Positions 24,179 to 61,381 of a stretch of 64,000 nt of DNA are shown piece after piece; positions within the stretch are counted from its first letter, which is position 1; every line of letters begins with the position of its first letter. The translations under genes and the position numbers were made by a program. The DNA is from Okamejei kenojei (lineage: Eukaryota). Below the pieces are notes generated by a model. The model was not told the DNA's origin and did no database searches. It saw only the letters and a program-made list of their open reading frames with translations. The stretch lies in contig CM069142.1 in assembly GCA_035221665.1 (NCBI GenBank), positions 30,938,001-31,002,000 on the forward strand. The letters run 5' to 3'.

Positions 24179-24288
24179 AAAGTCCATAACCTATAATCTT
24201 GATCAATGTCATTGGGGGGATTTTGGACACCAGATAATAAAAATTTAAAAATCAAAAATATAATATCAAAGTATGTTTTGTTCTTTAG

Positions 24289-30209: not shown

Positions 30210-30450
30210 AGCTTTTCGTGGAAAGCATGTGTCACTGGTTGTGCGGTTTCCAAATCAAGGACGTCAAGTAGAAGATTTGGATATTTGGTCTCACACAAAT
30301 GACACCATTGGGTCTGTTCGGCGCTGCATTCTGAGTAGAATAAAAGCCAATAGTGCACATACAAAAGTTGAACTGTTTATTGGTGGTGAACTTGTAGACC
30401 CTGCTGATGATAGAAAATTGATCGGACAGTTAAACCTGAAAGATAAAACA
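30210..30450 (+). CDS. USP9X: USP9X exon covering the ubiquitin-like domain region, [19 protein letters not shown]...QLNLKDKT
   Basis: aacag|A ... ACA|gtaagt; 241 nt; within ORF 30133..30501. Confidence 0.96.
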
Positions 30451-31416
30451 GTAAGTACTATATTAAAATATATATTTATAATTATAGTCAGTCAAAGCTA
30501 GACTGAAGCAACCCATTTCTGGTTTAATTTACACCCTGTAGGCATTCGTGCTATATTTTTACATTTTATAACTACCATTCAATTGAGATTAATATTTATA
30601 GAATGTTTCTCCATTTCTTTCTGACAAGAACATTGATTTGTCCATAAAATTATGAAGCATTGACTTTATACAAAAGTGAAAGTAGCTTCACAATTATCAA
30701 ATTATATTTTAGGGTTGTTCTTGTATCAATGACCCACAAGCTAATTGGGATGGTGTGTTGCTTGGTTATGGTTAACCATGCAACAGTAATATTGTCTGTT
30801 GAAAGATTTTGGTTCTGCATTGGGCATTTTGTTTTAACATTGTGCCCCTTTTCTGTAACATTCCCCTCCTGGAATACTAACAATTTGGTGGGAAGAATTT
30901 TGTTAGAAATAATTCTAATGCAAGTGAAAATAAATATCTAATTTCATTTGACAATTGTACATCAGTTGCATTTCTGGTGTTGAGATCTTTGACTTAGGAG
31001 ATTGTTTCTATTTTTAAATATAGCTTTGAAGCATAGGATTGATCAAGGTTGAGACAAAAGCCAATGTGAAACACTTATACATTTCCAGGAATGAGAGCAT
31101 GAATATAGCCAGCACTAAAAAGAGTTATTATAACAGAACAATACATTACTGATAGTGCTGCTATGTGCTTGCATGGTGTGATCATTTGCCTCCCTGTATG
31201 CTGTGTATTGCTTTGCCAGGAATCTGGTGCTGATCCAGCAATGAATTGTCCACAGCTTAGTATGGAGAGGCTGCCTATACAATCTGATTTAGTAAGTGGT
31301 GCAACAGCTCAGTGCTGAGATATTGGGCTTGCGCCTGAACCCTGGTTGGCACGGTGAATTTGAAACATTACTGGGCAGTGCCTGCTCCATGTGATGGCAG
31401 AGTGCTCAGATAATTG

Positions 31417-33174: not shown

Positions 33175-35066
33175 AGTAAAAAAAGAATCTTAAGAAAGAA
33201 ATTAGGAAGGCTAAAAGAAGATATGAGGTTGCTTTGGCAAGAAAGGTGAAAGTAAACCCAAAGGGTTTCTACAGCTATATTAATAGCAAAAGGATAACGA
33301 GGGATAAAATTGGACCATTAGAGAACCAGAATGGACAGCTATCTGCAGAGCCAAAAGAGATGGGGGAGATATTGAACAATTTCTTTTCTTCGGTATTCAC
33401 CAAGGAGAAGGATATTGAACTCTGTGAGTTAAGGGGAAAAAGTAGAGTAGCTATGGAAACTATGAGATTCAAAGAGGAGGAAGTACTGACACTTTTGAAA
33501 AATATAAAGGTGGATAAGTCTCCAGGTCCTGACAGGATATTCCCTAGGACATTGAGGGAAGTTAGTGTAGAAATAGCAGGAGCTATGACAGAAATATTTC
33601 AAATGTCATTAGAAACGGGAATAGTGCCGGAGGATTGGCGTACTGCGCATGTTGTTCCAGTGTTTTAAAAGGGTTCAAAGAATAAACCTAGCAATTATAG
33701 ACCTATTAGTTTGACGTCAGTGGTGGGCAAATTAATGGAAAGGATACTTAGAGATAATATATATATAAGCATCTGGATAAACAGGGTCTGATCAGGAACA
33801 GTCAACATGGATTTGTGCCTGGAAGGTCATGTTTGACAAACCTTCTTGAATTTTTTGAAGCGGTAACTAGGGAAATTGATGAGGGTAAAGCAGTGGATGT
33901 TGTCTATATGGATTTCAGTAAGGCCTTTGACAAGGTTCCCCATGGAAGGTTGGTTAAGAAGGTTCAATCTTTGGGTGTTAATGGCGGAGTAGCAAGATGG
34001 ATTCAACAGTGGCTGAATGGGAGATGTCAGAGAGTAATGGTGGATGGCTGTTTGTCAGGTTGGAAGCCGGTGACCAGTGGGGTGCCTCAGGGATCTGTGT
34101 TGGGTCCACTGTTGTTTGTCATGTACATCAATGATCTGGATGATGGGGTGGAAAATTGGATAAGTAAGTATGCAGATGATACTAAGATAGGTGGTGGTGT
34201 GGATAATGATAGTAGATTTCAAAGTCGACAGAGAGATTTGGGCCATTTGGAAAAGTGGGCTGAAAGATGGCAGATGGAGTTTAATGCTGTTAAGTGTGAA
34301 GTGCTACATCTTGGCAGGACAAATCAAAATAGGAAGTACATGGTAAATGGTAGGGAATTGAGGAATGCTGTGGAACAGAGGGATCTAGGAATAACTGTGC
34401 ATAGTTCCCTGAAGGTGGAATCGCATGTAGATAGGGTGGTAAAGAAAGCCTTTGGTGTGCTGGCCTTTATAAATCAGAGCATTGAATATAGGAGTAGGGA
34501 AGTAATGTTAAAATTGTACAAGGCATTGGTAAGACCAATTCTGGAGTATGGTGTACAATTTTGGTCGCCTAGTTATAGGAAGGATGTCAACAAAATAGAG
34601 AGAGTACAGAGGAGATTTACTAGAATGTTGCCAGGGTTCCAACAAGTTATGTCTTTATTCTTTGGAGCGCAGAAGGTTAAGGGGGGACTTGATTGAGGTC
34701 TTTAAAATGATGAAAGGGATAGACAGAGTTGACGTGGATACGTTTTTCCCATTGAGGGTAGGGAAGATTCAAACAAGAGGGCATGACATGAGAATTAAGG
34801 GACAGAAGTTTCGGGGTAACGTGAGGGGGAGCTTCTTTACTCAGAGGGTGGTGGCTGTGTGGAATGAGCTTCCAGCAGAAGTGGTGGAGGCAGGATCGAT
34901 TTTAACATTTAAGTCTAAAGTGGATAGATATATGGACGTGAAGGGAATGGAGGGGTATGGTCTGAGTGCAGGTAGATGGGACTAGGGGAAAACAAATGGT
35001 CGGCACGGACTGGAAGGGCCGAGAGGGTCTGTTTCCGTGCTGTAATTGTTATATGGTTATATGGTT
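33175..35066 (+). mobile_element. 5'-truncated CR1/HER LINE (reverse transcriptase domain)
   Basis: KSPGPD, DFSKAFDKVPH, GVPQGSVLGP, KYADD; a few frameshifts; (tatggt)n tail; 3' end resembles the SINE tails. Confidence 0.95.
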
Positions 35067-39305: not shown

Positions 39306-40573
39306 GTAAGCAAGTTACAATCTCAAAGCATTTTGTCATGTGTGTTTCTACAAATGTTTCACAAAAAAAAAAACATTACATCTGATAGAACCCTGTTTAG
39401 GCTGTTGCTGTGCTTCAAAGAGTCATAGCAACTGGCAATGCAGAGGAAGGCATTTTGGACCATTGAACCATGCTGATTGTAACATTTGCCAGCCTAATCT
39501 CATCTTCCAGCATCTGGCCATTAGTCCTGCAGTAATCAAAATAGTTTCAAAACCTGATTAAGACTTTTTCCCAAGACATTTCTACTACCAATTTCTGATG
39601 AAGGTTTAACTGTTCCTTTTTCCACAGATGTTGCTGAGTGTTACCAACTGTTTGCACTTAGATTTTCAGCATATACATTTTCTGTTACTCTTTATATTTA
39701 CTCTGGTCAGTTTTAGAATCAGATACTGTAGTCATTTGTTAAAACATATACTGGTTAATTTCTGTATGGTGTTCTGCAAGTGTTATGATGATCAAGGGTG
39801 TGACCGTGAACATGTAGATGAAGGATGACAAAACACCTTTTTTTAAAAAACAATTTTGCCATATCCTGAAGTGCTTTACTGCCAAAATAAAGCATTCCTT
39901 GCAGTGCAGTTACAATTGTAAACCTTGGAAACAAAATAGCAAAGTTGTGCGTAACATGCGAATGACTAAATTAATTTTGAGCAATTTTGATGTTGACTGA
40001 TGGAAAATATTAACCAGCTGTATGCTGTTTTATGCATACCCTATGAGTGCAGATAGGTCCATTTAATATTTAATCCCAAAGGTAGTACTGCTGACAATTC
40101 AGCATACATCAGTGCTGCATTGTCAGCTAAAATTTGGATTCCGGACTCTAAAGTGGGACTTGAATGTATAGTCTTTTGACTCATAAGCGTTAGTACTTAA
40201 TAAAAGGACGATTGAGGAGATGTGATTGTGACCTGGAAAGAACAGTTTTTGTGAAAACAGGACGTCTTCTCTCCAAATTGCATTAGTTTGAAAGATGTCC
40301 TCTGCACCTTTACAGATGGGTCTTAACTACTTACATTGGAAAAGTGATGTTTGATTGAAAACTTTTGGACTGGTGGTGGCAGTTGAGAAGATCCTGAAAG
40401 ACTTAATAAGCGATGCACACAGTAAAATGGATAGTTACATAATTTTTGTAAAATTTGCTGCTGGACGCAACATCGCAAATATCTCCAGTATCAAGTCATT
40501 TACAGACCCATCTGTAAAGGTGCAGAGGACATCTTTCAATGCCTAAATCCATGAGTCACCTACCAATTTCAAC

Positions 40574-42154
40574 TTCTCTACATCGGCGAGACCAGGCGCA
40601 GGCTTGGCGATCGCTTCGCCCAACACCTCCGCTCAGATTGCACTAACCAACCTTATCTCCCGGTGGTTCAGTACTGCAACTCCGCCTCCCATTCCAAATC
40701 GGACCTTTCTGTCCTGGGCCTCCTCCATTGCCAGAGTGAGGCCCAGCGCAAATTGGAGGAACAGCACCTCATATTTCGCTTGGGTAGATTTCACCCCGGT
40801 GGTATGAACATTGACTTCTCTAATTTCAGATAGTCCTTGCTTTCTCCCTCCTTCCCCTCCACCTTCCCAATTCTCCCACAAGCCTACTGTGTTCGCCTCT
40901 TCCTTTCTTTTTCCAGCCCCCCCTCCCCCCAACATCAGTCTGAAGAAGGGTCTCGACCCGAAACATCGCCTATTCCTTCTCTCAATATATGCTGCCTCAC
41001 CCGCTGAGTTTCTACAATATTTTCTGGTATCTAGACTTACCCCCTTAGTCTGGTTTAGTCAACCACTAAGTCAAACTCTGGTTCCAAAACCTTACTTTAT
41101 TGAAGAACAAACTGCAGGGACGGTTGCTGATCCACCCACACAAGACAACAATATCTCATGCTAACAGAACAGAAGTCACATTCAACCGGCACACCCCAAA
41201 GAATGACACGCCCTCTTGTACCCCTCCAAACTAAGGGCGTGACATTACTTGGGGGAGGCAACCCCAACAAACCAATCAAATATATTAATTATAACAGTAC
41301 ATAATTGACAGTTCCCTAACCCAATAATACAGTGGCTACTCCATTGTATAAGAAAGAAAAAGCTCTGAAAGGAAGCAAACAAGAACAAACATTGAAATAT
41401 GTGTCCTGGGATTCAAACAGTTTCTCCAAGGCTCAACAGTTCGACCAATCATTGATTAACAGGATGACCGTCTTGCAACATTATTTACGGTTATTTACAA
41501 AGTCTATGTCTGGTTTGCAGCCATCCAGCCATTCTATGCATTTTGCACCTAATTGACAGGGTTTGCAGATGTTCTTATTCTTTGCTTGCAAATTGTATCT
41601 AAGCTCTAGATACACTGGCACCTCTTCGCAGCTTGTCCCAGCTCTGCAGAGAGCAATTCCAATTGACCAAATCTCCCAGCAGCCCTGATGCTTTAATCCC
41701 ATTTAGAAGTCCTAGCCTCTCCAGTTTAGCCAGGATTAACACGCTCAGTTTGCACTAACCAACCTGATCTCCCGGTGGCTCAGCACTTCAACTCTCCCTC
41801 CCATTCCGAATCTGATCTTTCTGTCCTGGGCCCCCTCCATTGCCAGAGTGAGGCCCAGCGCAAATTGGAGGAACAGCAGCTCATACTTCGCTTGGGTAGT
41901 TTGCACCCCAGCGGTATGAACATTGACTTCTCTAATTTCACATAATCCTTGCTTTCTCCCTCCTTCCCCTCCCCCTTCCCAATTCTCCCACAAGCCTACT
42001 GTCTCCGCCTCTTCCTTTCTTTTTCCACTCCCCCCCCCCCCCCCCCCCGACATCAGTCTGAAGAAGGCTCTCGACCCGAAACGTCGCCTATTCCTTCTCT
42101 CAATAGATGCTGCCTCACCCGCTTAGTTTCTCCAGCATTTTTGTCTACCTTTGA
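40574..42154 (+). mobile_element. Two Penelope 3' fragments (40574-41023 and 41741-42154) flanking an unrelated ~715-bp insert
   Basis: GIY-YIG C-terminal and pLTR sequences as at 5992. Confidence 0.85.
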
Positions 42155-42350
42155 TATGTATTCGATGAGTTTGTGTTTCTGCACGGTTAGTAGGATTTAC
42201 TATGGATATCCAAAGAGATTATGGATGTGACCCCAGAAAAAAAGTTTGATACCTTTGATATGTATTCGATGAGTTTGTGTTTCTGCACGGTTAGTAGGAT
42301 TTACTATGGATATCCAAAGAGATTATGGATGTGGATGTGACCCCAGAAAA
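42147..42350. repeat. ~100-bp tandem duplication
   Basis: tacctttgatatgtattcgatgag...ggatgtgaccccagaaaa occurs twice. Confidence 0.9.
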
Positions 42351-43498
42351 GTTTAATTTAAGTGAGCCTATCTTCTTTCTTGCTATTTTCATTTGTAAAG
42401 CCTGGAGTAACCTTGGATCCCTGCTTTCATTAAAGATAAGAGAAAGTTTTCATTTGTTTGACCTGCAGTACACATTGGAATAAGGGGTGCAAATATCATT
42501 TTGATGGGAGGAAATTTCATGTAAAAGGATTCTCCGTCTTGTGTGGAAGCAAGAAATGTTTTTGTATGTGCTTGAGTTCTGCTGCAGTGTAAACTTGTTC
42601 TGTACCCATAGTTTGTGCCTAACCTGCTAAGTATTCCTAACATTTTCTTTTTATTTCAGATTTCCAGCACCTGTCATTTTTATTTTTCACTTGCTGTGTA
42701 GTTGGTTTATATTTATTACCTGTGACTTCATTGATTCTAGCAAAGCATAACTCAAGAAGCCTAGATGGTAATGGGCTGCAGTAGAGTAAATAAGGAGGAC
42801 CATTTTTCTTAGCAGAGCGTAAGAGGATAGATGTGAATGATTTTCACTCATTGCTGAAAATATTTATAGAGATAGAAATGTTCAACATGTTGTAAAATTG
42901 CTTGTATGTGTGTTTTAAGTCCCTTAAGCGACACTGCAGACGAGCAGCTGGAAAATGGGAATTGGCTGACCAGTTCTATTCAATATGCATTGTCAAATTA
43001 AATACTTCCTTTGAAAGATGCTATTTTTTGTATCTACAAACAAATTGAATAAATATTATTAGGTTCACAATCAACTTTGTGATTGCTTGTGCAGACCATC
43101 TGCTACCATTGCAATGTTGCACTTATTGTAAACAAATGACACAGTTTTGGGAAGGTCTCTGTGGATAAAGGACTTAATATACTTCGACCTTCAGCTCCAT
43201 TCCTGCGAGTATGAGGACAATTGTTGATTTTAGAAATGATTTTGCATTGCCTGTTTGGCAAAGACAAATAATTTTTGGCACACAAATAATTGAAGAAAGA
43301 TTTTTTAAGTATAATTTTCACATCGTAAGGATGTTCCAAACTACTGAACTAGCAGCATGTTTTTCATTTGTGATTTTTTTTTCCCAAATTAAGATACTGT
43401 AAGTTTCCCTGCAATGATGTCTCACCTGTTTGCATGTTCAGCTGTAATTGTGTAATAACTTAGATAACTTTGTTCTTTTTAATATGTTTCTTCTGTAG

Positions 43499-43619
43499 AT
43501 AATGTCCTTGCATCCCCGATACATTTCCTTCCTCTGGCAAGTTGCAGATCTGGGCAGTAGCTTAAACATGCCACTTCTGAGAGATGGTGCTCGTGTCCTC
43601 ATGAAACTCATGCCTCCTG
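43499..43619 (+). CDS. USP9X: USP9X exon [40 protein letters not shown](D)
   Basis: ctgtag|ATA ... CCTG|gtaag; 121 nt. Confidence 0.96.
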
Positions 43620-43749
43620 GTAAGATGCCTTTATAATAAAGGGTAGAACAAGATTTTGTTGTCTAGTGACATTGGTTGTGAGTATTGCTGTTGAGCTTTC
43701 AGTAATTTAAACCCTGAAGTCAACTGGTAATCATTTCCAAAGGTGCAAC

Positions 43750-43920
43750 TGGGGTGTAGTGGTACAATTGCTGCCTTACAGTGCCAGAGACCTGGGTTTG
43801 ATCCTGACTACGGGTGCTGTCTATATGGTGTTTGTACGTTCTCCCCATAACCTGCGTGGATTTTCTCAGGGATCTCCAGCTTTTTTCCACACTCCAAAGA
43901 CATACAGGTTTGTAGGTTAA
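43750..43920 (+). mobile_element. 5' half of an HE1-like SINE split by the DIRS insertion
   Basis: Ends ...catacaggtttgtaggttaa and resumes at 52872. Confidence 0.85.
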
Positions 43921-44819
43921 TAGTAAGATTAAACGAGAACTTACCAGTTCGAAGTTTGATCGTTATTTTATGAGGAGTAACGATGAGGGATTACGTGAAG
44001 AACCCCGCCTGGCGCTGGAAACGGCATACTTCAAAGCAGCGGCATGAAAAACACAGAACACAAATAGCCGGAGTAAGATAGTAAGGCTCATCATAGATTT
44101 AGACCTACCAGATGATCATTTATTTTATGAGGGTGGGGAGTGGAGGGCACGTAATCCCTCATCGTTACTCCTCATAAAATAACGATCAAACTTCGAACTG
44201 GTAAGTTCTCGTTTAATCTTACTATTTTACTTCGGAGTCACGTGAGTGACTACGTGAAGAGTTTGAAAGCTTTCTGTGTTTTTCGTGTCGTAGAATTTAT
44301 TCCATACGACAGTACGGCTCATTTAACACCAATAATGAGCGAATAACACATTTTCCCCAAACATTGCCTCAAGTTATGTGATAAATTATTTCACATTATA
44401 AAAAATGAAAATAATGCCCTTTCCATTGAAAGGCAAGTTTATCACAAATACCAATTGATATATATATTTTTATGGCATGACAAAGCAACAATTATAGAGA
44501 ACCGAACATTGCGTGTCTAAATCTGACACCATGACTGGTTCCTTTTTACTTTAACAGTAATCTACAGCCTCCTGCGGCCTTGCATCTTTGCTCGAGTGGC
44601 TCATCCTGTGCCATTCCTGTGAATGTATTTTCCTCATTAACAGAGTGATTTTTCCACCTTTCAGTGTCTAGTTCCTACTGAATGTATCCAATTTTTAACC
44701 ATCTAGAAATACATTCCTCTATAACTATCAGTTTTTACTGAACCCAATGTGGTTTTTGTGTGTAATAAGCAGTCTCATTGCCACAGAGACTCTTACCTAC
44801 TGCAACATTTTCATCAATG

Positions 44820-44821
<2 letters not shown>

Positions 44822-44866
<45 letters not shown>
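44822..44866. repeat. (CA)n microsatellite
   Basis: Direct reading. Confidence 0.95.
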
Positions 44867-44868
<2 letters not shown>

Positions 44869-45138
44869 CTTAAAGCCAGCAGGATATGCTTATAGTTTAC
44901 CTTCGTTTCAGGTCTTCTTGGTGTGCTTTGTTTGGTAGATTCATAAACATATATGATAATGCAATTTGTATCCACATGCAATTATAACGTAACATTTGCA
45001 ATGTTTGCACTCTTATATTGATACTAAAGTTATCAGAATTATTATTTTCAATGTTCAAGTTTTTTGAATCATAGATAGAGTTAGAGTCCATTTTCTTAAG
45101 GCATTTCAAGATTATTTATCTCCTGCCTTTATATTTTT

Positions 45139-45276
45139 NNNNNNNNNNNNNNNNNNNNNNNNNNNNNNNNNNNNNNNNNNNNNNNNNNNNNNNNNNNNNN
45201 NNNNNNNNNNNNNNNNNNNNNNNNNNNNNNNNNNNNNNNNNNNNNNNNNNNNNNNNNNNNNNNNNNNNNNNNNNNN
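45139..45276. other. Assembly gap (left boundary of the CACNG block)
   Basis: N run. Confidence 1.
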
Positions 45277-45300
45277 ATTTGGGCGGAATTCTTCCGATTT

Positions 45301-45454
45301 TTCCATCCCAATTCCGAATTCCGATTTTTTGTCTCAATATTCCGAGAAAAAAAATCGGAAAAAAAAAAACACACAGAAACTTTCTATGTGTTTTTTTTTT
45401 CCGATTTTTTTTTCTCGGAATATTGAGACAAAAAAAATCGGAATTGGGATGGAA
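45301..45454. repeat. ~155-bp palindrome (MITE-like hairpin)
   Basis: ttccatcccaattccg...gtctcaatattccgagaaa / tttctcggaatattgagac...cggaattgggatggaa. Confidence 0.85.
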
Positions 45455-45842
45455 CGGGCTGGAGCGTCTAGACTCAGAAGCGCAGGGGGAGAAGTAGGTG
45501 CGAGTCAGGTGGGCACCGGGGAGGAGGGTGGAGAGGGGGAAATCAACGATCATCCCGTGGGGTAGTAAGCCAAATACGTTCATTATCACTTCGGGGGCAG
45601 GGAGAGATGGTCCGGTCCGGCCCAGACGGGCAACACTCACCGGTCACCTCACCTCAGCGCCGCCGCCGCCGGGACTGTCAGCCCGGTGAGTGACCGCGAG
45701 CGCGTCAGGTCGGGTCGGGGCCAGCCCGTTCCCGCCTCACCAACACCGACACAGCCGCCGAGGCACCCAGCTGCTCAGTGCTCGGGCGGGTAACGGAGCA
45801 GAGCAGGGCCGGCTGGCTGGCTGGCTGGCTCCCGGGCCGGGC

Positions 45843-46056
45843 ATGGGGGGCGGCGTGGAGCGCGGCGTGCAGATGTTGCTGACCACGGTAGGGGCGTTCG
45901 GTGCCTTCAGCTTGATGACCATCGCCGTGGGCACCGACTACTGGCTGTACTCGCGGGGCGTGTGCCGGAGTAAGGGCGGCGGGGACAACGACACGGTCCA
46001 CAAGAACGAGGAGGTGATGACCCACTCGGGGCTCTGGAGGACCTGCTGTCTGGAAG
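45843..46056 (+). CDS. CACNG2: First coding exon of a type-I TARP / calcium-channel gamma subunit (CACNG2/stargazin-like; CACNG3 not excluded)
   Basis: [41 protein letters not shown]...[18 protein letters not shown](G), then a phase-1 donor G|gtagg; GC-rich upstream; no further exons seen. Confidence 0.8.
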
Positions 46057-46152
46057 GTAGGTGGCGGCGGAGCCCGTTCCCCTGGATCCTTGGCCTGGCC
46101 CGGGCTACCTGACAGTCCCTTCGGCCCACACATCGGGACCCCCCGCACGTCT

Positions 46153-46524
46153 CCCGGGACCCCGACCCTCCACTCCCCGGGGCCCCGACCCTCCACTCCC
46201 CGGGGCCCCGACCCTCCACTCCCCGGGGCCACGACCCCCACTCCCCGGGGCCCCGACCCTCCACTCCCCGGGGCCCCCGACCCTCCACTCCCCGGGGCCC
46301 CGACCCTCCACTCCCTGGGGCCCCGACCCTCCACTCCCCGGGGCCCCGACCCTCCACTCCCCGGGGCCCCGACCCTCCACTCCCCGGGGCCCCGACCCTC
46401 CACTCCCCGGGGCCCCGACCCTCCACTCCCCGGGGACCCCGACCCTCCACTCCCCGGGCCCCGACCCTCCACTCCCCGGGGCCCCGACCCTCCACTCCCG
46501 GGGCCCCGACCCTCCACTCCCCGG
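46153..46524. repeat. 23-bp GC-rich minisatellite, about 16 copies (ggggccccgaccctccactcccc)
   Basis: Period of 23 seen at 46164/46187/46210; accounts for the GSGGSG and PGAP ORFs. Confidence 0.93.
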
Positions 46525-47781
46525 GAACTCTGGACGTCCTCTCCTCCCCCTCCCACCCCCCAGGGACCCCCGGCCCTTCTCCCATCTGAGCCCCGCCATC
46601 TCCCCCTGTGTCTTCCGTTCCAGCCCCTCCAAATCCCTGCCCCATGCGCGGTTCCCATGTATTCCGATACCCAGAATAAACACAGTTATAACGGGGCAAC
46701 TGTCCTCCAAGAGCAGAATAAACACCCCAGTCCAAGGACAAACGCACTGGTAGCCGTGTCGGGAGAAGCGATACCTTGCTGGCGTGTTAACCCCCGTTGA
46801 AGCGCCTCTCGCACCTCTCACAGCGAGTAGCACCAACACAGCATTGTAACGCGGGAAATACTTCCCCAGCAGCAGCTGAAATCTCCACCCTGCTCTTTGA
46901 CACATCTCCGGAATTGTTGTGACCTTTCTGGCAAATATACAAACAAGGGGGGGTTCTCATTGTTAACTGTCAGAGCGCAGCAGGGGGAAGTAAGCGGTAG
47001 ATGAATAATAATCAGAACATGAAAACATAAGATGCCCACATCTCTCCCTCCTCCCTCCCCCCCCCCCCCCCCCCACCCCAACCCCCGGGCTTTACCATTC
47101 AAGAGAACACGATTGAAAGTACCACTGCCCTGTACTAAAACCCACTTGCTTTGACATGCTTATGCAAACATCAATTGATCGCTCTCGCGAATATGTTCTG
47201 CGCTCAAGTCCCTGCATCTCAAATTTCCAAAGATTCACTTCTGTTCGGGAAGAAGAAATGCCTTGCCACTGCCGACCGCATTCCCACGGCTCACACGCTA
47301 ACCCTGTTTGTGAGTACCCAGCCGCAGCACCATCAACGTGGCTCCTCTCCCAACCAGCTGTGCAATCTAGTGTGTTTCAATGTGATCACTCCATTCTTCT
47401 GAACACCAGAAAGCTTGGAGTTCGCTGTAACATGACTAAACAGAACAAGCCGTCAGTGAGAATCAATTTTTAAAAGGGACTTTCAGCTTCCAGACAAAAA
47501 TGGACAAATTATTTTTGGTCTGTATTGCCATGAAATACATCATTTTGAAACGTGTCACTCGGGCATGAGCCAGGAATGTGAAGGGTTTTAGTGGGAAGTA
47601 TCATCATATGGTTAAAAAAAAGAAAATGTTTTTTTTAAAAAGTAAAACGAGACAGATGCTGGGAATCTGAAATAAAACAAAAAATGCTAGAAGATCAGAC
47701 AACATCTGATCAGACAGGGAGTTAATGTTTCAGTTTGGTGCTTTTCCATCCAGAAACGAGAACGTTAGAAAGAGATCCCGT

Positions 47782-48098
47782 CAGCGGTGGAGTTGCTGCC
47801 TCAGCGCCAGAGACCGGGGTTCGCTCATGAATACGGGCGCGGTCTGTACGGAGTTTGTACGTTCTCCCCTGTGACCGCTTGGGTTTTCTCAGAGTGCTCC
47901 AGTTTCCTCCCACATTCCAAGGTCGTGCAGGTTTGCAGGTTAATTGGCTTCTGTAAATTGTCCCTAGGTGCAGGTTAATTGGCTTCTGTAAATTGTCCCT
48001 AGGATGTAGCACAGAACTAGTGGACAGGGGGGTAGTTGATTGGCACGGAGTCGCTGGGCCGAAGGGCCTGTTTCTACGCTGTATCTCGAAAACTAAAA
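47782..48098 (+). mobile_element. HE1-like SINE with an internal ~35-bp duplication
   Basis: SINE head and core; gcaggttaattggcttctgtaaattgtccctagg occurs twice. Confidence 0.8.
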
Positions 48099-48505
48099 TG
48101 AAAACATGTTTTAAGATGCAGAACATGGGTGGAGAGAAGATGGTGAAGGTCTTGACATCAGAAATAAAACAGAAAATGCTGAAAATGCTCAGCAGGTCAG
48201 GCAGCATCTGTAAAATGAAAGAAATAGTTCATAGTGAGACACAAGTAGCTGTAGATGCTGGAATCATGAGGAGAAAAAAACAAAGTGCTGGAGGATAGAC
48301 ACAAAATACTGGAGTAGCTCAGTGGGTCGAGCAGCATCTCTGGAGAAAATGGATAGGTGACGTTTTGGGTTGGGACCTTTCTTCAGACTGATTTTGTGAG
48401 GGCTTTGGCTGGAAGCGAGGGAAATTCAGGACGTATCAGGGCAGCAACAGATGACCTCAAGCAGGGAGGTTTCCTGATAGGCTGATTGTTGGCTAGGAAC
48501 AGTGA

Positions 48506-48857
48506 GCTAGATGCAGGAAGATTGTTCCCGATGTTGGGGAAGTCCAGGACAAGGGGTCACAGCTTAAGGATAAGGGGGAAATCCTTTAAGACCAAGATGA
48601 GAAAGACTTTTTTCACACAGAGAGTGGTGAGTCTCTGGAACTCTCTGCCACAGAGGGTAGTTGAGGCCAGTTCATTGGCTATATTTAAGAGTGAGTTGGA
48701 TGTGGCCCTTGTGGCTAAGGGGATCAGAGGGTATGGAGAGAAGGCAGGTACGGGATACTGAGTTGGATGATCAGCCATGATCATATTGAATGGCGGTGCA
48801 GGCTCGAAGGGCTGAATGGCCTACTCCTGGACCTAATTTCTATGTTTCTATGTTTCT
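48506..48857 (+). mobile_element. CR1 3' fragment nearly identical to 3063-3410
   Basis: ORF 48486..48761 differs from ORF 2815..3318 by about 2 residues over the shared part. Confidence 0.9.
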
Positions 48858-48906
48858 ACTCACAAACTGAGAGTTGACGAAGAAACTGCAGATGCTGGAG
48901 AATCGA

Positions 48907-49094
48907 GGGTTACACAAAATGCTGGAGAAACTCAGCGGGTGCAGCAGCATCTAAGGAGCGAAGGAGATAGGCGACGTTTTGGGTCGAGACCCTTCTTCAG
49001 ACTGAGAAGGGTCTCGACCCGAAACGTCGCCTATCTCCTTCGCTCCTTAGATGCTGCTGCACCCGCTGAGTTTCTCCAGCATTTTGTGTAACCC
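48907..49094. repeat. Near-perfect inverted pair of Penelope pLTR ends
   Basis: gggttacacaaaatgctgg...gggtcgagacccttct / agaagggtctcgaccc...ccagcattttgtgtaaccc. Confidence 0.88.
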
Positions 49095-49097
49095 CCC

Positions 49098-49228
49098 TGA
49101 GGTCACTTTCCCGCCCTCACTGACGTCACGTACCCCGCCCCTTACTGACGTCACCTGCCCCGCCCCTTACTGACGTCACCTGCCCCGCCCCCTTACTGAC
49201 GTCACGTGCCCCGCCCTCACTGACGTCA
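49098..49228. promoter_or_regulatory. Tandem array of five perfect CRE palindromes (TGACGTCA) alternating with GC boxes
   Basis: CRE at 49121, 49146, 49171, 49197 and 49221; ccccgccc between them; function untested. Confidence 0.5.
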
Positions 49229-49257
49229 GACTAATAGGATTCCGATTTTTCAATCTC

Positions 49258-49420
49258 NNNNNNNNNNNNNNNNNNNNNNNNNNNNNNNNNNNNNNNNNNN
49301 NNNNNNNNNNNNNNNNNNNNNNNNNNNNNNNNNNNNNNNNNNNNNNNNNNNNNNNNNNNNNNNNNNNNNNNNNNNNNNNNNNNNNNNNNNNNNNNNNNNN
49401 NNNNNNNNNNNNNNNNNNNN
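49258..49420. other. Assembly gap (right boundary of the CACNG block)
   Basis: N run. Confidence 1.
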
Positions 49421-52400
49421 CCTTTCCATATTGGGATATTATGAATGCATCTGATAACTTCTTGGTTAATATATTGTCCGTTTATAAGACGGTAACATTC
49501 TGAGCCCTATTATTGGCTCTATCAATTAGATACTTAGAAAATGCAATCCACAAGGAATTCACATATATCCAATATGATAAAATAACTATACTGTATATAC
49601 AGACCTCCAATTTCTTATAACAAAATATTGTTTTTTAGACTTATTTCTGCAAATTGCAGGTATAACACTTCTTTATACATAATTATTTTATTGATATATT
49701 GTTATATTGGTTAACATTCAAAAACTTCTTTGACCATCAGCTGTTGTGATGGTCTGGTCAACCTGTAGATAGTAAAATTCATATTTCCATGTCATGGAGG
49801 TTTTTTGTACAACAATAAATTACTGCAGGGTTTCTCAAACCTGGAGATCCCAGTGGGTGCAGCAGCATCCAAAGAGCGAAGGGAGACAGGCAACGACCTA
49901 GGTCGAGACCCCTTTTTTGACTTCAAAAAATTGCTGCCACTTTGAATCATCACTAGCAGTTCAAATCACACAATATTTATGAAACCATAAAGGACCCGTA
50001 TTAGGCCACCAAAATGCCTCTCGCAGTGTCCTGCTACATTTTCATCAGACACTGCCCTATAAACAAAAATGAGGAACACAAAGAAATCTTTTCCTCATGT
50101 AATTGGGAGAAAAGCATCCACCTTCACTGTTCTTGGTTTACCCACAAGAAATATTCGAAAGATCGGTGATTTAATCTGTATGTAATCAGATTAATCGTAA
50201 GTAATCCATATTAATGACAATATGTTTTTTTTTTTTTCCTCCCAAATTTGTTATCTTCCGATACCATTGTCTCTTCCTTAGAGATAAACAGGTGGACTAA
50301 ACTTTAAAATATGCCACATCTGTTTACTTAGATAATCCCATGATTGTTATTTGACTTATCTTGTGACCCACAAGAACCATTTGAAAGATCAGTGATTTAA
50401 TCTGTATACAACCAGATTAATCGCAAGTAATGCAAAATAATGACAATATGTTTTTCTCCCAAATTTGACCATTGTTAACATATGCCACAGCCGTGGTATT
50501 GTTCATCTTGATACGACATGGACAGTTCCATAATAAAACAATCGATCTTTTTAATCCATAACTCCTTATACTTCAACAATTAATACGAATGTTTGGAAAA
50601 TTTCTTAGGACAAACCATTTATGTTCGCCTGGTATTATTGTCTGCAGTCCGAACAAGAGACATATCAATTATTGTTATAAGAATAGATAATATTCTTATC
50701 TTTACCCAAACATTCACAGAAGCTGTACATCATCTGCAACACTTGCTTCAGTTTGCAACAGCTGTTAATCTTATAGTTGAAGCAGCTTATGAACCTTTTT
50801 TACATTACTTTAATAATGATAGCGTATCATTTGATATTTTGCATCAGCCTCTTCACAAGGCATCCATATTCTTATAAACTTCTGTATTCCTTCTTTTGGA
50901 ACTTTATTTATTTTTTACCTAATCCTAATGGAGGGACAAAGTATGTCGACAACAATTAGACATATTTGTATCATGGAACAATTTTCCCCCTCTCTTATGG
51001 TGCTTGAATTACTTCTGAATTCAGAATAGTAATTTATAAATATTTTATTAATGCCTGAGCATATGCTTTATGTAATGGGTCAGGTCCTTACCTCCCACCA
51101 GGTTTGTAATGGCAGGCACTAATTTGCAGCTGCTCTTATCTCTTCCAATTTAAATGTAATCGAGATAACCCATGACCATGACCTCCCACTTTAATTAATT
51201 TCAAGCACCTGAATATTGATTAACACTTTGTTAATCACAACAGTTTTTCCATGTTCTAGATGTTTCCATTTTCTTACACTGTGAAAGTGTAAATATAATG
51301 ATGTTTTGTATGGTTTATACCATGAAATCTTTACACTGAGGTAATTTTATAATATACATGTACGTACCCTTCTTATTAAATTACTTTTGAGTGCAAACCT
51401 GAAATCAATTTTTAAAAGTTTTCTTATACAGGTGAACCAATCCTTCCTTAGATATATTGGTTAATAATCATAATACACCTGTAATCCCCCATAATTGGAG
51501 ATTTCATGGACTTATTTTGTAACCAGATGTTTGCACCTTTTCAACGTACTTCAAGCCTTCTTTCCCCCAATTATATAGGTTTAGATAAGGCTATGTTTGG
51601 ATTATACCACTTCTGCCTTTGTTTTGATCCATTATCAAATCTTTCATTGGATCATAGTTTTTTCACCGCAAGTTAAAAAAGATCTTTGCCTTTGTTTTGA
51701 TCCATTATCAAAATTTTTCATTGGATCACAGTTTTTCTCCCCAAAGTTTAAAGATCAGTAGTCTTTTGTAATTAATATCTTTGATTCATCATAAGGCAGG
51801 TTTATTCTATAATAATCAGGAGTTTAATATCCTGATTTGTATTGATCTGCGAACCTATAGTGCAGATTTGGTAAATTATATATATTTCTTCCTATTGAGC
51901 TCCACAACTGATGGCAATTTATTTTATTTTGAAAGTATTACTTATTTGCACCATTTTGAAATACTTTGAAATTGTATTTCTTATATCTCATATTATTTGA
52001 GACATGGATATTTATAAACGGATTTACCGTTGATATTTTAATAAAACATAAAAGTTTTATCGTATTCTTGAAGTTGGTGAGATACCATATAATTAATGTT
52101 GGCAGCTAGGTTTTCTTCCATAGCCTCACCACTTCTTTTAGATAAAGCAAAATCTTTTGCTATCTCAGGCACATCTGGCCTCACTTTTTTATTTGTGGTT
52201 TGCATTCATAATTCACATCACCACTTGCAGGGTCTGTCTTTTGCAGCCCTGATCCACTTGGAATTATATCCAAAGAGACTTCCTCCACCCTAATCCAGGG
52301 TTCAATTCTCAATTTGGCACACAGCCATATTTTGTATATTTAAGCCCCTCAGGATCTTTTTTGGGTTGTTTGGGTACTGTGACCCTTGTCTCTTTTTATA

Positions 52401-52871
52401 TTTTGGAGTACTTTCTCCATATCGCGATTTTTATTAACTTTTTTTAAAGTACAGCCTTTCTGTCTTTTAAAATTCCCTGCCAAAAGATTGTGGAGCATTT
52501 TTACTTCTCTACCGTAATTTTAACGGTACCAGTATCGGAACCGGCCCCGTAATTAATCTCTCGTCCCGATCGCTGGGTATTCCCCTGGGACGTTCTTTTC
52601 AAAACTCCGTTATTTTAACAGAGTATATCTGTTCAATTTAAACTTTTAGTTTGTTTTTAAAATCCTTTAAAATCCTGGTTTCCACCAGGCACGGAGTTTT
52701 CCAGTCCTAAAAAAAAAAATTTTCAACTGCCTTACCTGCCGGTTCCGAACCTACCGCTGTCGAGGAGCTGTTCTGTGCAGCTCCTGCTTCTGCCGTCAGC
52801 GTCGACGTAATGCCGTTTCCAGCGCCAGGCGGGGTTCTTCACGTAGTCACTCACGTGACTCCGAAGTAAAA

Positions 52872-52988
52872 TTGGCTTGGTATAATTGTAAATTGTCCCT
52901 AGTGTGTGTAGGATAGTGTAAATGTGCGAGGACTCGATGGGCCGAAGGGCCTGTTTCCGCGCTGTATCTCCCAAAATAAACTAAACTG
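52872..52988 (+). mobile_element. 3' half of the split SINE
   Basis: ttggcttggtataattgtaaattgtccctag...gggccgaagggcctgtttccgcgctgtatctc. Confidence 0.85.
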
Positions 52989-53902
52989 AGGCTGCCACTG
53001 TTACTAGCATACGTCAGTAAAAAACTGCGAGTACAAGATTTGAGATATTTTTGGAGTTTCAATGTTATGGCAAATATCATTCAGGCCATGCTTTATTAGA
53101 TTATATGCCAAATCCAGTAGCATCATAAGCATTTGTGAACCATGTAGGTCAGTGGCTCTCAACCTTGTTTGCCCCATGCACCCCTTTCACCATATGTCAG
53201 AATGTCATTCCCCCCCTTTCCAAGATTGTCTGCCTCAAAAAGTGAATGATGTGTTTGTTGCTGAGTGAGTAACTTCAAATAGTGTTTGCTTTGTGAAAAG
53301 ATTAAGGTCAGTTAGACAATGCCTAAGATGTTTTATTCAATTTATATTTTGAATTTCACTGAATGTGGTTGATGGCATTGGCATTTGAACATGTACAGTT
53401 AAGCCAGTTAAAAGTGGAAATAAATGCCTAAGTTACAAGGAATGAAGTTTAAGGGATTATTGTGTAAATATTCAAATATGAAAAGTAGGTTCAGTACAAA
53501 AGGGGTAGGACACTGGGAGAAGCCGGATGATGAAAATGTAGAATATTGTCAGAGGTGCAGGCATTAAAAAAATCTGCATTGCTATAAAAAATCTTAATGA
53601 CATGACCAATGAAATATTTTTGAAATCAAGTCAAATAATTGTCAACAGGCACAAAATGAAATCCCACAGGGAGCAAAGTTAGGTTTACTGGTCTCTTTTA
53701 TTAAAGGCTGTGAATAGCAGTTACATAGTTTTCCATACTATGTTGAAATACAGGATTTTTTAAAACATATTTTGGAGATCTTTTGTAACAGTATGACTTG
53801 AGTATGTTTGAAATGAAACAATGGAAACATTCTGTTGCCTCTCTTTTCCCAATAATTGAGTTTTCTTTTAAACATAATCATCAATTTTTTTATCTTTTCC
53901 AG

Positions 53903-54033
53903 ATAACACTACCGTAGAAAAACTTAGGGCTATTTGCTTGGATCATTCAAAGCTTGGTGAAAGCAGCCTCAGTCCAAACTTGGACACGCTCTTCTTTGGA
54001 CAATCTGCCTCACAAGTGTTATATCTAACTGAG
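53903..54033 (+). CDS. USP9X: USP9X exon (D)[43 protein letters not shown]
   Basis: ttccag|AT ... GAG|gtatgt; 131 nt; phase 1 matches the preceding exon across a 10.3-kb intron. Confidence 0.95.
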
Positions 54034-54720
54034 GTATGTAGACCTGTTATGAAAAAAATCATGCAAGAGGCTGCAGTTTCTCTGCGATTATAGTAATAGA
54101 GAGAAAGCTGTGATTTGACAGTGTCTGTGATTGATCTGGTTTGAACTGTTAATTTGACCTACTGTTTTGTCTCTTAAACCATAAACTCCAGTGTTGGATA
54201 AAAAGTTATGTGATCACAAATTTTACCTCCTCCACATGTCTGTTTTATATTTGATATGATTCTGAAACGTGCAATTCTTATAGCTAGACAATAAAGTGTA
54301 AAAGTCCTTTGAAAGGTTCCTTAAATGCACTTAGCTTCAAAAATGATTATATATTTGGTAATATTTTTGTTTTAAGAATTCCAAGGTGTCTGAAGTTATA
54401 ATTATTTTATATTAAAATTGCATTATTTTTTACACTAAATTTAATAATTGATCATAATCTTTAAAGTTGTATGTTGCTTACAAAAGTTATCTTTTCTAAA
54501 ATTGAAAGTGTGAATACTGAACACAACTTTGCTGCATTGTAACAAGATTTTTCACGGCATAATTAATTGACCAAGTGTAATATTTAACCAAAATGTTAAA
54601 TTAGTTTTAAACATTTGCAGAAGAGCAAAAGTTACTATTCTGCTTTTATATCAAATAGTGATTTACTATTAAATTATCCGTTTAAAATTTCTTCTTTTAA
54701 CTTATCGCATTTCTGAACAG

Positions 54721-54999
54721 GTAGTATATGCCTTGTTAATGCCTGCTAGTGCACCTTTGGGAGAAGATGCAAGTGATTTCCAATATAACTTCTTAAAAAG
54801 TGGTGGTGTGTCCCTTGTTCTGGGCATGCTTACGAGGAATAATTTTCTGCTAAATGCTGATGTGGAGACACGAAGGGCTGCCTATCTTAATGCACTAAAA
54901 ATAGCCAAGTTATTGCTCACAGCTGTTGGATATGGCCACGTTAGAGCTGTGGCAGAAGCATTTCAGCCAGTTGTGGAAGGATCAAGCAATGTTTCGCCA
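54721..54999 (+). CDS. USP9X: USP9X exon [29 protein letters not shown]...VEGSSNVSP
   Basis: gaacag|GTA ... CCA|gtatgt; 279 nt; overlaps ORF 54733..55083. Confidence 0.96.
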
Positions 55000-55342
55000 G
55001 TATGTATCTTTTCTTATGTAAAATATTGCTTATTTCCTGTGATAATTCTATGTCAATGGCAAAAGAATGATGGCTTATTTTGAGACATTGACACTAAGGC
55101 AGAGCGGTTTTCCTATTTATTTAATAAGCCAAAGAACAGCAGTGTATTTAGTGATATGCATTATTTTGGTGATGGAAGCGTCATCGGGATGACTTTTACT
55201 GGAGATTGGCTTCCTTTGAATTCCAATAAAAAATGTGGACTTAGTTACTTATGCAAATCCTCTTTTCTACCGCTAAATGTGTAGTTTTAAATATCTCAAC
55301 ATTTTTGGTGTTGCGTTTTGATTCCTGTTTCCATTTTATTGA

Positions 55343-57394
55343 TATGCTGTGGGCCGAGCATCGAAAAAAAAGCATCTAGAATTTAATTTTTGTGACCCAT
55401 GTCTGGTATTTACCTGAAATTTGGTGCAGATTTAGATAAAATATCATTAAGAAGGAATTCGTAACTCGTCAGTGCCAAATGTTGCACACTAATTAATTAA
55501 GATAATTAGAAAATTTATTAGAAAAAGTAACAGCGCTTACTAGTGCTCAATAATAGGCAGTCTAATATTACTCTGTGGGGAGCTGGATTCCATGCTGCGG
55601 CAATTTACTTCCTGGCTCAAGGAGATCACATAACGGGGAGAGGGAGAGGGAGAGATGGAGAGTCCGGGACGGAGCAGCCAGCCTTCCGCCCAGTAGCTAC
55701 CCGCCAACCACCACCTCCAACGGTTGCGCCTGTGCCGAAGGACACAGTGGCTGGCTGGCTGGTGGGCGGGCCGACAGAAGGCGCTGAGGTGGCCGGTCCC
55801 GGCGGCCGCTCGCAGCCACCCGAGCTACTTCCCTCCCCGGCCACAATGCGGTGGCTCCGCACCCGGAGCGCCGCGGCAGCGGTGAGTGAGTGAGTTGCTG
55901 CCATGATCTCCGACCCCCTCCTTCTCAACGCTCCTGCCCTCCCCGCAACTTTACCCCTGGCGGCTCAACCAAGTTTGCAACTTTTGCAGCCCAGGCCATG
56001 CTGACCCGGGTTTCACCAGCTCATGAACCCGCCTAATTAATGGGTGGGTGCAGATCCTGTGCATTCCCTACTGACTGCCAATTATGTTCCTCTGGTAGAC
56101 ACACTTGCTGGAGTAACTCAGCGGGTCAAGCAGCATCTCTGGGGAAAATGGATAGGCGACGTTTCAGGACCAGACCCTTCTTCACTTTGAGAGTGAGGGG
56201 AGAGAGAAACTAAAGATATCTGTGTTTCTCAGTCTGAAGAAGAGATTCGACCCCAAACGTCACCTATTCCTTTTCTCCAGAGATGCTGCCTGTCCCGCTG
56301 AGCTTTTCCAGCATCGTGCGTCTACCAGAGGAAAGTAACTTTGTTTTAGGTACTTTGCACGAACCAAGGTCCAGGATCTCTGTACTTGATCTGGATGAGT
56401 AAGTACACTGTTCATTAAGTCTTAATAGCCTCAATCACTGCCTGACGTCTGGCTGTCTCCCAAGCCATCTCGGATAATGAAGCACGACCCGTGGTACATT
56501 TTGGGGTCTCGGTGTGGCATATCCCCACTGCATTGCCGGGAACCTGTTGATTAAAATCGATCCAACCACTGAGCTCCATGTAACTGAAATGAACAGGCGG
56601 ACCTTTCTCATCCCACGGTAATCGATGAGATGTGTTGTATTTTTCGCTCCCGGGTTTAAATCAATTCAAACTTGGACACACTAAACAGCAAAAGTAAACT
56701 GTAAATAATCATTTATTTTCCCAATCTTTTGGTTTAGATTTCATGATATGTCATGAATGGCTAGTTTACAAACAGAAACATTGCATTTTTATTTGTTAAT
56801 ACACGATGTACGAATGAAAACACTTCAATCTCACAATAATAATCATGTCTTGGATCGGTCTTCATTTTGGGGAACATTGTTAGTACTCAAAGTATTCAAA
56901 GTATTCTTATCCAGAGTCTTCATCAAAGTTGAACTCTTTCAAACTTATGCATGCACTGTAATCTGCAGTTCACTCTCTTGCAAAGATTAGATGACAACTT
57001 GCTGAAAGTTCACAATAATCATCAATCATACTGTCATGGTTTATTATGGTGTAGATAATCATGTGAGGTAATTTGTATTATTGTATTGACAGTTAAAACC
57101 TCTTGCACTAACCTTCCGCCATGATCCCAGAGTGCTCTCTGCCTAGCTAGCCTGAAACAAAGCGTGTGATTGGTCAATTGCCGTCCGACTCAATGTCAAA
57201 CATGTATTGATTGGACAATTACTACTCAGAAAATTTGAGGTTTTTTTCATATTTTAAAATTATGTGCAGGTTTTGTTCTTGACGAGTTTCAGGTATGATT
57301 TATATAATATTTCTACACAATATGTTAAAAATAAAGGTAGATACATGATTTGGGTCACAAAATGAAACGAAAAAGCACCTCGGCCCACAGCCTA
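55343..57394. mobile_element. Non-autonomous DNA transposon, Academ-like
   Basis: TIRs ta(t)gctgtgggccgag / ctcggcccacagccta; subterminal ttttgtgaccca / tgggtcacaaaa; 3-bp TSD TGA; contains an inverted Penelope pair at 56095-56327. Confidence 0.6.
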
Positions 57395-59656: not shown

Positions 59657-61381
59657 CAGTGCCCTCCATAATGTTTGGAACAAAGACCCATCATTTATTT
59701 GTTAAAGAAGGAACTGCAGATGCTGGAGAATCTTGGGTACACAAAAGGCTGGAGAAACTCAGCGGGTGCAGCAGCATCTAAGGAGCGAAGGAGATAGGCG
59801 ACGTTTCGGGTCGAGACCCTTATTTATTTGGCTCTGTACTCCACAATTTGAGATTTGTAATGGAAAACATCACATGTTAAAGTACTCATAGTCAGATTTT
59901 AATAAGGGCTATTTTTATACATTTTGGTTTCACCATGTAAAAATTACATAGTCCCGTCCCGCCCCCCAACCCCCCCCCCCCTCATTTCAGGGCACCATGT
60001 TGTTTGGGACATAGCAATATCATGTGAATGAAAGTAGTCATGTTTAGTATTTTGTTGCATATCTTTTGCATGCAATGACTGCTTGAAGTCTGCGATTCAT
60101 GGACATCACCAATTGCTGGGTGTCGTCTCTGATGATCTTCTGCCAGGCCTGTATTGCAGCCATCTGTAGCTTATACTTGTTGTGGGGGTTAGTCCCTTTC
60201 AGCTTTCTCTTCAGCATATAAAAGGCATGCTCAATTGGGTTCAGATCGGGCGATTGACTTGGCCACTCAAGAATTAACCATTTTTTAGTTTTGAAAAACT
60301 CCTTAGTTGCTTTAGCAGTATGTTTGGGACCATTGTCCAGCTGTAGAATGAACCGCCGGCCAATGTGTTTTGAGGCATTTGTTTGAACTTGAGCAGATAG
60401 GATGTGTCTATACACGTCAGAATTCTTTATGCCTCTACCATCAGCAGTTGTATCATCAATGAAGATAAGTGAGCCAGTACCTTCAGCAGCCATACATGCC
60501 CAGGCCATAACACCCCCACCACCGTGTTTCACAGATGAGGTGGTATACTTTGGATCTTGGACAATTCCTTCTCTACTCCATACTTTGCTTTTGCCATCAC
60601 TCTGATATAAGCTAATATTTGTCTCATCTGTCCACAAGGCCTTTTACCAGAACTGTGGTTGCTCTTTAAAGTACTTCTTGGCAATCTAACCTGGCCATCT
60701 ATTTTTGTGGCTATCCATTGGTTTGCATCTTGCAGTGTAGCATCTGTATTTCTGTTCATGAAGTCTTCTGCGGACAGTGGTCATTGACAAATCCACACCA
60801 GACTCCTGAAGAGTGTTTCTGATCTGTCGGACAGATGTTTTGGGATTTTTCTTTATTATAGAGAGAATTCTTCTGTCATCTGCTGTGGAGGCCTTCCTTG
60901 GCCTGCCAGTCCATTTGTGAGCTCACCAGTGCTCTCTTTCTTCTTAATGATGTTCCAAACAGTTGATTTTGGTAAGCCAAAGATTTGGCTGATGTCTCTA
61001 ACAGTTTTATTCGTGTTTCTCAGTCTCATCATGGCTTCTTTGACTTTAATTGGCACAACTTTGGTCCTCATGTTGATAAACAGCAATAAAAGTTTCCAAA
61101 GATGTGAGGAAAGACTACGTGCTGAGAGCTCTCTTTTACCTGCATGAAGGAGGCAATTAAACACACCTGAGCAATTACAAACACCTGTGAAGCCATGTTA
61201 CCCAAACATTATGGTGCCCTGAAATGGTGGACCAAAAATGTATACAAATGGCCTTTTACAAAATAAGACAATGTGCACTTTAACCACATCTGACTTTTTC
61301 TATTACAAATCTCAAATTGTGGAGTGCAGTGGCAAATAAATAAATCTTGGGTCTTTGTCCCAAACATTATGGAGGGCACTG
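59657..61381 (-). mobile_element. Tc1 element of the same family as 1498-3685, full length, TA TSD, frameshifted transposase
   Basis: TA|cagtgccctccataatg ... cattatggagggcactg|TA; ORFs 60044..60637 (WTDET, QLDN, SPDLNPIE) and 60856..61164; Penelope piece inserted in the left TIR (59701-59820). Confidence 0.94.

Follow-up and report, generated by a model that had tools for sequence, protein, structure and literature searches.

A DIRS1-like retrotransposon with intact termini and a decayed coding core in a USP9X intron of Okamejei kenojei

How can a retrotransposon whose genes have decayed still possess termini that match their internal template without a single mismatch? The question is raised by a locus in a 64,000-nucleotide (nt) stretch of Okamejei kenojei DNA (GenBank assembly GCA_035221665.1, contig CM069142.1, positions 30,938,001 to 31,002,000, forward strand; hereafter the window, in whose coordinates all positions are given), where a first-pass annotation made from the letters of the DNA had described a DIRS-type retroelement of 8.95 kb inserted into a short interspersed element (SINE). 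The organisation of the sequence gives good support to its assignment as a DIRS1-like tyrosine-recombinase (YR) retrotransposon. The copy, about 4.67 kb in length, probably integrated after the death of its own genes by using the reverse transcriptase (RT) and the YR of an intact relative.

Termini, internal complementary region and insertion site

In its sense orientation, on the minus strand, the element extends from 52872 to 43919, with ATT at its start and its end alike. At the 3' end, 43919-43997 is the exact reverse complement of 44148-44226 (79 nt), the right half of the internal complementary region (ICR), which we denote rICR; at the 5' end, 52836-52872 is the exact reverse complement of 44224-44260 (37 nt), the left half or lICR. 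The two halves overlap on 3 nt (44224-44226), which form the end-to-end junction. Furthermore, 43992-44027 is the exact inverse of 52810-52845 (36 nt), joining both ends. Inverted matches of 79, 37 and 36 nt are far beyond chance. The reverse-complement matches of 77 and 36 bp reported in the first pass are exact and extend by 2 and 1 nt, respectively, and the inverted core of 36 bp stands as it was described. Inward from the 3' end, the ATT core (43919-43921, AAT on the plus strand) begins a right extension (rE) of about 45 nt (43919-43963, boundary taken from the alignment with the left end) which matches the rICR only. It is followed by the divergent part of the right inverted terminal repeat (ITR; 43964-43991, 21 of 26 aligned nt matching the left end) and by its conserved part of 36 nt (43992-44027), from which a looser similarity runs inward to about 44063. 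The left terminus (52810-52872) comprises a divergent part starting with ATT (52846-52872) and a conserved part (52810-52845). The ITRs are non-identical, formed by the 36-nt exact core and a divergent outer part. The core common to both ITRs and both ICR halves amounts to 6 nt exact in all four sequences, with a 10-mer in three of them, and the lICR opens with a repeat of the final 10 nt of the conserved ITR.

This geometry is canonical. The available part of PMC3266345 describes DIRS1-like elements of 3,974-6,283 nt with ICR halves overlapping on a 3-bp circular junction, an rE and ITRs with divergent and conserved parts, whose integration is a recombination with a genomic site of the same 3 bp and duplicates no target sequence; their ends are NTT, most commonly ATT (23/28 elements). 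The present element shares the ITR structure, the rE, the 3-nt overlap of the ICR halves, the ATT ends and the absence of a target-site duplication (TSD), and its 4,672 nt fall within the published range. The DIRS1-type identity put forward in the first pass is borne out by the terminal geometry, but a perfect ICR junction and a missing TSD are, in the available part of the same source, the normal state of the family. In comparison with the elements described there, all reading frames are destroyed here though the ends are perfect, the common core is 6 nt instead of at least 10 nt (a descriptive and not a defining feature), and the spacer contains an additional inverted copy of the ICR, the anti-ICR considered below, of which that part of the source makes no mention. 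PAT-like, Ngaro and VIPER affiliations were rejected, as no split direct repeats are present and the terminal repeats are inverted.

The proportions of the ends can be compared with the elements tabulated in Additional file 3 of PMC3266345. In the mollusc elements LgDIRS1, LgDIRS3, AcaDIRS1 and AcaDIRS2 the core is ATT, the conserved ITR measures about 30-36 nt (36 here), the rICR 86-88 nt (79 here) and the rE 48-49 nt (about 45 here), whereas the seven vertebrate elements, with values of 112-148, 56-65 and 26-34 nt, are unlike the present one. The proportions are nearer to four of the five mollusc elements than to the seven vertebrate ones, which constitutes a lead from geometry and not a phylogenetic placement. 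The available text of PMC4350176, PMC5499810 and PMC6817897 contains no structural description of DIRS elements in cartilaginous fish; figures and supplements of these papers may list them.

The insertion site lies within a SINE copy on the plus strand, of which the 5' part (43758-43918, aligning with other copies in the window) and the 3' part (52873-52980) flank the element. We take the family to be HE1/V-SINE-like, as the HE1 of sharks and rays. The rejoined flanks form one colinear, uninterrupted SINE copy, 76-78% identical to all three near-full copies of the window that were aligned. The same 3 nt (AAT on the plus strand) flank the insertion on both sides; the empty site and the ICR junction each contain them once. 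A 3-nt TSD was rejected because the second copy is supplied by the junction template; the flanking AAT is the crossover core. Thus, the earlier statement that excision restores the SINE without a TSD is right as to the single colinear copy and the missing TSD, with the correction that 3 nt are present on both flanks.

The host gene around the element is USP9X, on the plus strand, and the element lies antisense in an intron (protein match PDB 7yxx, E 1.8e-77). The identity of this gene shows the host to be a vertebrate. Exon-containing frames are found at 24203-24658, 30127-30501 and 54673-55083 (gene span 24203-55083), the third of which has no Pfam match and was presumptively placed by similarity.

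Decayed coding core and an interposed contig

On the sense strand the longest stop-free run is 72 codons, and the open reading frames (ORFs) of the element are non-functional. Two remnants are recognisable at the level of motifs. The RNase H motif, taken from a published alignment (PMC2685390, including Additional file 6), scores 36/41 at 50503 on the minus strand, the best value on either strand of the window, reached by none of 2,000 dinucleotide shuffles. Paired with a YLDD-like site 640-700 nt upstream, here the YLDY at 51167, it gives a score of 50 that 0/2,000 shuffles reach, and the plus-strand control of this pair test remains at null level. The decayed RT region (51080-51330, from the motif pair test) and the decayed RNase H region (50460-50670, from the motif score and alignment comparison) are co-oriented on the minus strand in this order, their motifs being 664 nt apart. 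The spacing of about 670 nt given in the first pass is close to this value, with protein support at motif level only. Database searches returned no match to DIRS RT or RNase H, although the RNase H motif and the RT-RNase H spacing outscored 2,000/2,000 shuffles. A second RNase H-like score, at 30950 on the plus strand, was dropped for lack of supporting context.

Further remnants on the minus strand were called by eye from their resemblance to DIRS proteins and are unconfirmed: a gag-like remnant (51950-52200, without a Pfam match), a decayed methyltransferase (MT)-like region (49960-50467) and a decayed C-terminal YR-like region (44560-45138) with an HSTR-equivalent at 44647, the latter judged against DIRS YR. 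As called, they fall in the canonical order. An internal duplication affects the MT-like region (50123-50250 versus 50351-50467, 102/117 identical), a CA repeat (44822-44867) interrupts the YR-like one, a 73-nt tandem duplication (64/70 identical) occupies 51614-51760, and a repeat that is abundant in the window has left a diverged fragment (78%) nested in the interior at 49827-49922 on the plus strand.

The flagged stretch 43921-52871 is not contiguous. Assembly gaps at 45139-45276 (138 N) and 49258-49420 (163 N) bound a contig of 3,981 nt (45277-49257, GC 0.549), which is non-DIRS host DNA and probably mis-scaffolded. Because the gaps and this foreign contig had been overlooked, the size and contents of the element were misread in the first pass: an AT-rich, ORF-less body is an apt description of the 4,672 nt that remain without them, and not of the rest of the 8.95 kb. 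The middle contig carries the intact first coding exon of CACNG2/CACNG3 (TARP gamma-2/3), from the ATG to the GT donor (45843-46056, plus strand; protein match with E 9e-36 to gamma-3 and 2e-35 to gamma-2; Pfam PF00822), together with a 23-nt variable-number tandem repeat (VNTR) and ordinary host repeats. Since 348 nt of it (48506-48853) are a repeat 99% identical to 3063-3410 elsewhere in the window, it is DNA of the host species, and contamination as its source is ruled out. That the contig is foreign to the element follows from the fit of element length and motif spacing once it is removed. The distance between the AFPP and HSTR positions assigned by eye is 5,433 nt as assembled, 1,151 nt if the element contigs abut, and 1,009 nt after subtraction of the CA repeat and the nested repeat fragment, compared with 971-1,100 nt in 11 of the 28 published elements tabulated (PMC3266345, Additional file 3). 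A scaffolding error is the most likely explanation for the presence of the CACNG contig inside the element.

Old interior, intact ends and rival explanations

The contrast between ends and interior can be expressed in numbers. None of the 152 paired terminal positions is mismatched, whereas the two internal duplications differ at 21/187 positions (15/117 and 6/70); the pooled Fisher p of 3e-6 is rough because the pairs overlap. The long-range terminal pairs alone, which span several kb, show 0/63 mismatches, for which the interior rate would give a p of about 6e-4. At 95% confidence the terminal mismatch is at most 2.0%, or at most 4.6% if only the 63 long-range positions are used; a recent move here means only a divergence under about 2-5%, in relative terms and with no clock applied. 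In addition, the 800 terminal nt (400 per end) contain 47 CpG and the 3,872 nt of the interior 37, the boundaries being sharp, and the 5' leader, which is not templated by the ICR, still folds well.

In order to account for these features we rely on the replication model of Dictyostelium DIRS-1. According to the available part of PMC7192593, the ICR is essential in that system, where the cDNA is single-stranded and for the most part linear and the proteins work in trans. The ends, absent from the transcript, are restored there with the ICR as template for both, over 33 + 55 nt in DIRS-1 and 37 + 79 nt here. Transcription of the present element, on the minus strand, would thus omit the extreme ends; the single-stranded cDNA would extend its 3' end on the right ITR, switch to the lICR and run across the ICR, so that left end, ATT and right end would be written in one pass; and recombination of the joined ends with an ATT in the genome would place an ATT at each end without duplicating the target. 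Because the ends are rebuilt on the ICR, their identity with it would be reset at each jump, and the perfect match would date the last jump, as the ends would be recopied from the ICR in every cycle. The stops, duplications, microsatellite and nested repeat would date an older loss of the coding capacity. About 400 nt of cis signals per end would have been kept, either by selection in a non-autonomous lineage or by exchange with an active partner. In the available part of the DIRS-1 study, the proteins act in trans on a truncated donor construct without gag, RT and RNase H (Malicki et al. 2020, PMC7192593); the present copy differs from it in being a natural, near-full-length and decayed one, known from its sequence alone.

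The right end contains an additional structure. The spacer between the ICR and the right ITR (44040-44147) repeats the ICR region in inverted and degenerate form, as what we call the anti-ICR, with 73/85 aligned nt identical (alignment score 64, against a best value of 38.5 among 2,000 shuffles). Part of it, 44068-44085, copies the end-to-end junction at 16/18 positions and can pair with 44218-44235, and a 19-nt arm (44272-44290) pairing with 44040-44058 (17/19) closes the 3' hairpin. When the right end is removed, the ICR/anti-ICR region folds as one long imperfect hairpin (z -6.3 as DNA, plus strand; -6.8 as sense RNA), with the 10-nt landing site of the lICR mostly outside the main helix; when the full right end is included, a perfect 79-nt helix displaces this hairpin. 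The 12 mismatches of the anti-ICR comprise five that would wobble on the cDNA strand, two on the RNA strand and five on neither; across the whole alignment the difference of 5 versus 2 is not significant, and in the two cleanest helices 4/4 mismatches are G-T pairs on the cDNA strand. An AATAAA in element sense (44119-44124, minus strand) lies in the anti-ICR arm, where it would be paired in the hairpin, and is absent from the matching rICR and terminus; a second AATAAA begins at 44301. At the opposite end, the CpG-rich 5' leader (52473-52809, minus strand) adopts a strong multibranch fold with four short hairpins (z -5.3 as RNA, -7.8 as DNA). In a sliding fold scan, 3/35 segments reached z <= -5, two of them being the leader and the 3' hairpin and the third an AT-rich part of the interior. 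Rfam returned no family for the leader (one chance match, E 1.6) and nothing reaching the gathering threshold in 40000-56000.

The anti-ICR may steer the template switch, or it may be what remains of an ancient fold-back duplication. A wider and rather doubtful reading would take the copy as a natural footprint of the cis needs of DIRS elements, the anti-ICR as a functional fold, and the lineage as a mollusc-type branch in a vertebrate with a long protein-less spread. The anti-ICR would then pair over the ICR junction in single-stranded cDNA with the 10-nt lICR landing site bulged, and the fold would hold this site beside the right ITR, steering the switch that rebuilds both ends. Alternatively, by folding, a single strand could offer the recombinase a junction in duplex form, in the manner of the folded attC sites of integrons. 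The only 3' hairpin mentioned for DIRS-1 in the available part of PMC7192593 is of 14 nt. In the DIRS literature searched we found no description of the anti-ICR; it may nevertheless be known already, for instance from the primary papers of Goodwin and Poulter, from Cappello 1985 or from Repbase entries.

Several observations weigh against a late integration of an already decayed DIRS1-like copy. The arms of the 79-nt hairpin could be kept alike by homogenisation at the locus itself, the long-lived family proposed in the first pass is represented by a single copy in the 64-kb window, and the assembly is broken within the element. The AT-rich interior segment 51913-52152 matches the ends in folding strength (z -5.1), so that folding alone draws no clean line between ends and interior. 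As to the coding core, the RNase H motif was chosen after seeing the window, and scoring of the DLFAS, AFPP and HSTR motifs did not single out the positions called by eye (that of HSTR ranked fourth), for which reason the spacing argument depends on the by-eye positions. Pfam gave no relevant match in six whole frames (one unrelated, E 0.13) nor in nine fragments; PHROGs matched one of five fragments, with unknown function (E 0.21); phmmer, run with one of the three sense frames of the right contig against 1.84 billion proteins, gave no match; and homologue searches on three stretches (391, 3 and 4 candidates) gave none at E 10.

An old resident copy, inserted intact, decayed in place and later refreshed at its ends by gene conversion, either internal or from a young member, would explain the loss of interior CpG, the CA repeat and the nested repeat, which are hallmarks of a long residence in methylated DNA; moreover, the rICR and the right end are 150 nt apart and can form a hairpin. 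We consider such a history unlikely, since the two ends, which lie several kb from each other, would have to be converted independently over about 400 nt each, including the untemplated leader. Assembly could also have produced the contrast, by collapsing or joining young multi-copy DIRS ends onto an old interior or by joining two loci across the gaps. The two gaps, the foreign contig and the fact that both flanks are halves of a common repeat would permit this; however, each end runs without a break into decayed coding sequence of the contig to which it belongs, the SINE halves rejoin with no loss or overlap beyond the 3-nt core, and the interior pieces fit in length, which makes an assembly product quite unlikely.

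The same gaps bear on the CACNG segment, which might be a real cargo or a later genuine insertion in the DIRS copy. Its ends share a 15/16-nt direct match (45292-45307, 49240-49255), the CCTTT beside both gaps could be a short duplication, and the segment is host-species DNA by its 348-nt repeat. Yet N are present on both sides of the contig, its appearance is that of a native first exon in a CpG island, accompanied by ordinary intron repeats and on the same strand within the USP9X intron, and the shared end repeats would account for a mis-join as well; a genuine insertion is very unlikely. Specific targeting of this SINE site by the element is very unlikely too. The insertion fell in a family that holds just 41 of the 3,187 AAT/ATT sites outside the element in the window, and DIRS-1 is reported in the available part of PMC7192593 to favour existing DIRS-1 copies; against this, a single event was noticed after the fact, the 3/3 other near-full copies aligned are unbroken, and target and junction are alike in the 3-nt core only, so that an extended target homology was rejected. 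The preference for SINEs suggested in the first pass is therefore unsupported, and a literature search on SINE-targeting DIRS elements, at the level of titles and listings, found no such report.

Neighbouring features and significance

The middle contig presents CACNG2/3 exon 1 with a CpG island and the beginning of intron 1, between two gaps within the USP9X intron, and the VNTR, which is C-rich, lies directly downstream of the exon (46107-46612). A 150-nt imperfect palindrome at its left end (45301-45454) and a related 16-mer at its right end (49240-49257) are possibly an unassembled repeat at both gaps. Five 25-nt repeats next to the gap (49097-49228) each contain a GC box and a TGACGTCA motif, which we take to be CRE-like. 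The pieces at 48506-48853 and 3063-3410 are 3' parts of a CR1/L2-type long interspersed element (LINE), 99% identical over their 348 nt and members of a young family. An abundant repeat with many relatives (e.g. 59701-59824, 18428-18636 and 42053-42141) occurs at 48907-49094 as a 90-nt near-perfect inverted pair; it presumably contains a hammerhead-like core as in Penelope elements, a reading that is unconfirmed, Rfam having returned generic hairpin models only for this palindrome. Elsewhere in the window we found Tc1-type transposase frames (9432-10370, 1755-2528 and 60044-60643), the first of which is open over 312 codons with helix-turn-helix and DDE domains; a long terminal repeat retrotransposon integrase fragment with rve and H2C2 (27185-27817, minus strand), presumably BEL/Pao-like; CR1-type LINE reverse transcriptase frames (33180-34985, RVT_1 E 8e-27); and a third assembly gap of similar size with unrelated flanks (7532-7696, 165 N).

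As is proposed for the present element, TOC1 of Chlamydomonas and DIRS-N1 of zebrafish move, or are thought to move, without proteins of their own, the N of the latter presumably standing for non-autonomous. TOC1 is called an active nonautonomous DIRS in the available part of bioRxiv 2022.06.16.496473, and DIRS-N1 is named in that of PMC5400779; TOC elements have split direct repeats, unlike the inverted ends found here (PMC3266345, available part). In Xenopus, degenerate families of DIRS elements are common (bioRxiv 2021.08.05.455354, available part). Non-autonomous elements of the DIRS order being already in print, what is new here is one more DIRS1-like member, one unexplained structural detail, the anti-ICR, and one probable assembly error. 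The latter, a CACNG exon within a USP9X intron, would disturb the annotation of two conserved genes. Furthermore, copies with a decayed core evade screens that require recognisable RT, MT and YR domains. According to the available part of PMC7192593, tests of DIRS replication are confined to one system, in which the primer and the end-restoration steps are still open. A naturally mobilised copy, with drifted coding DNA and intact ends of about 400 nt, points to the elements that would be needed in cis, including the structure of the 5' leader and the 3' hairpin.

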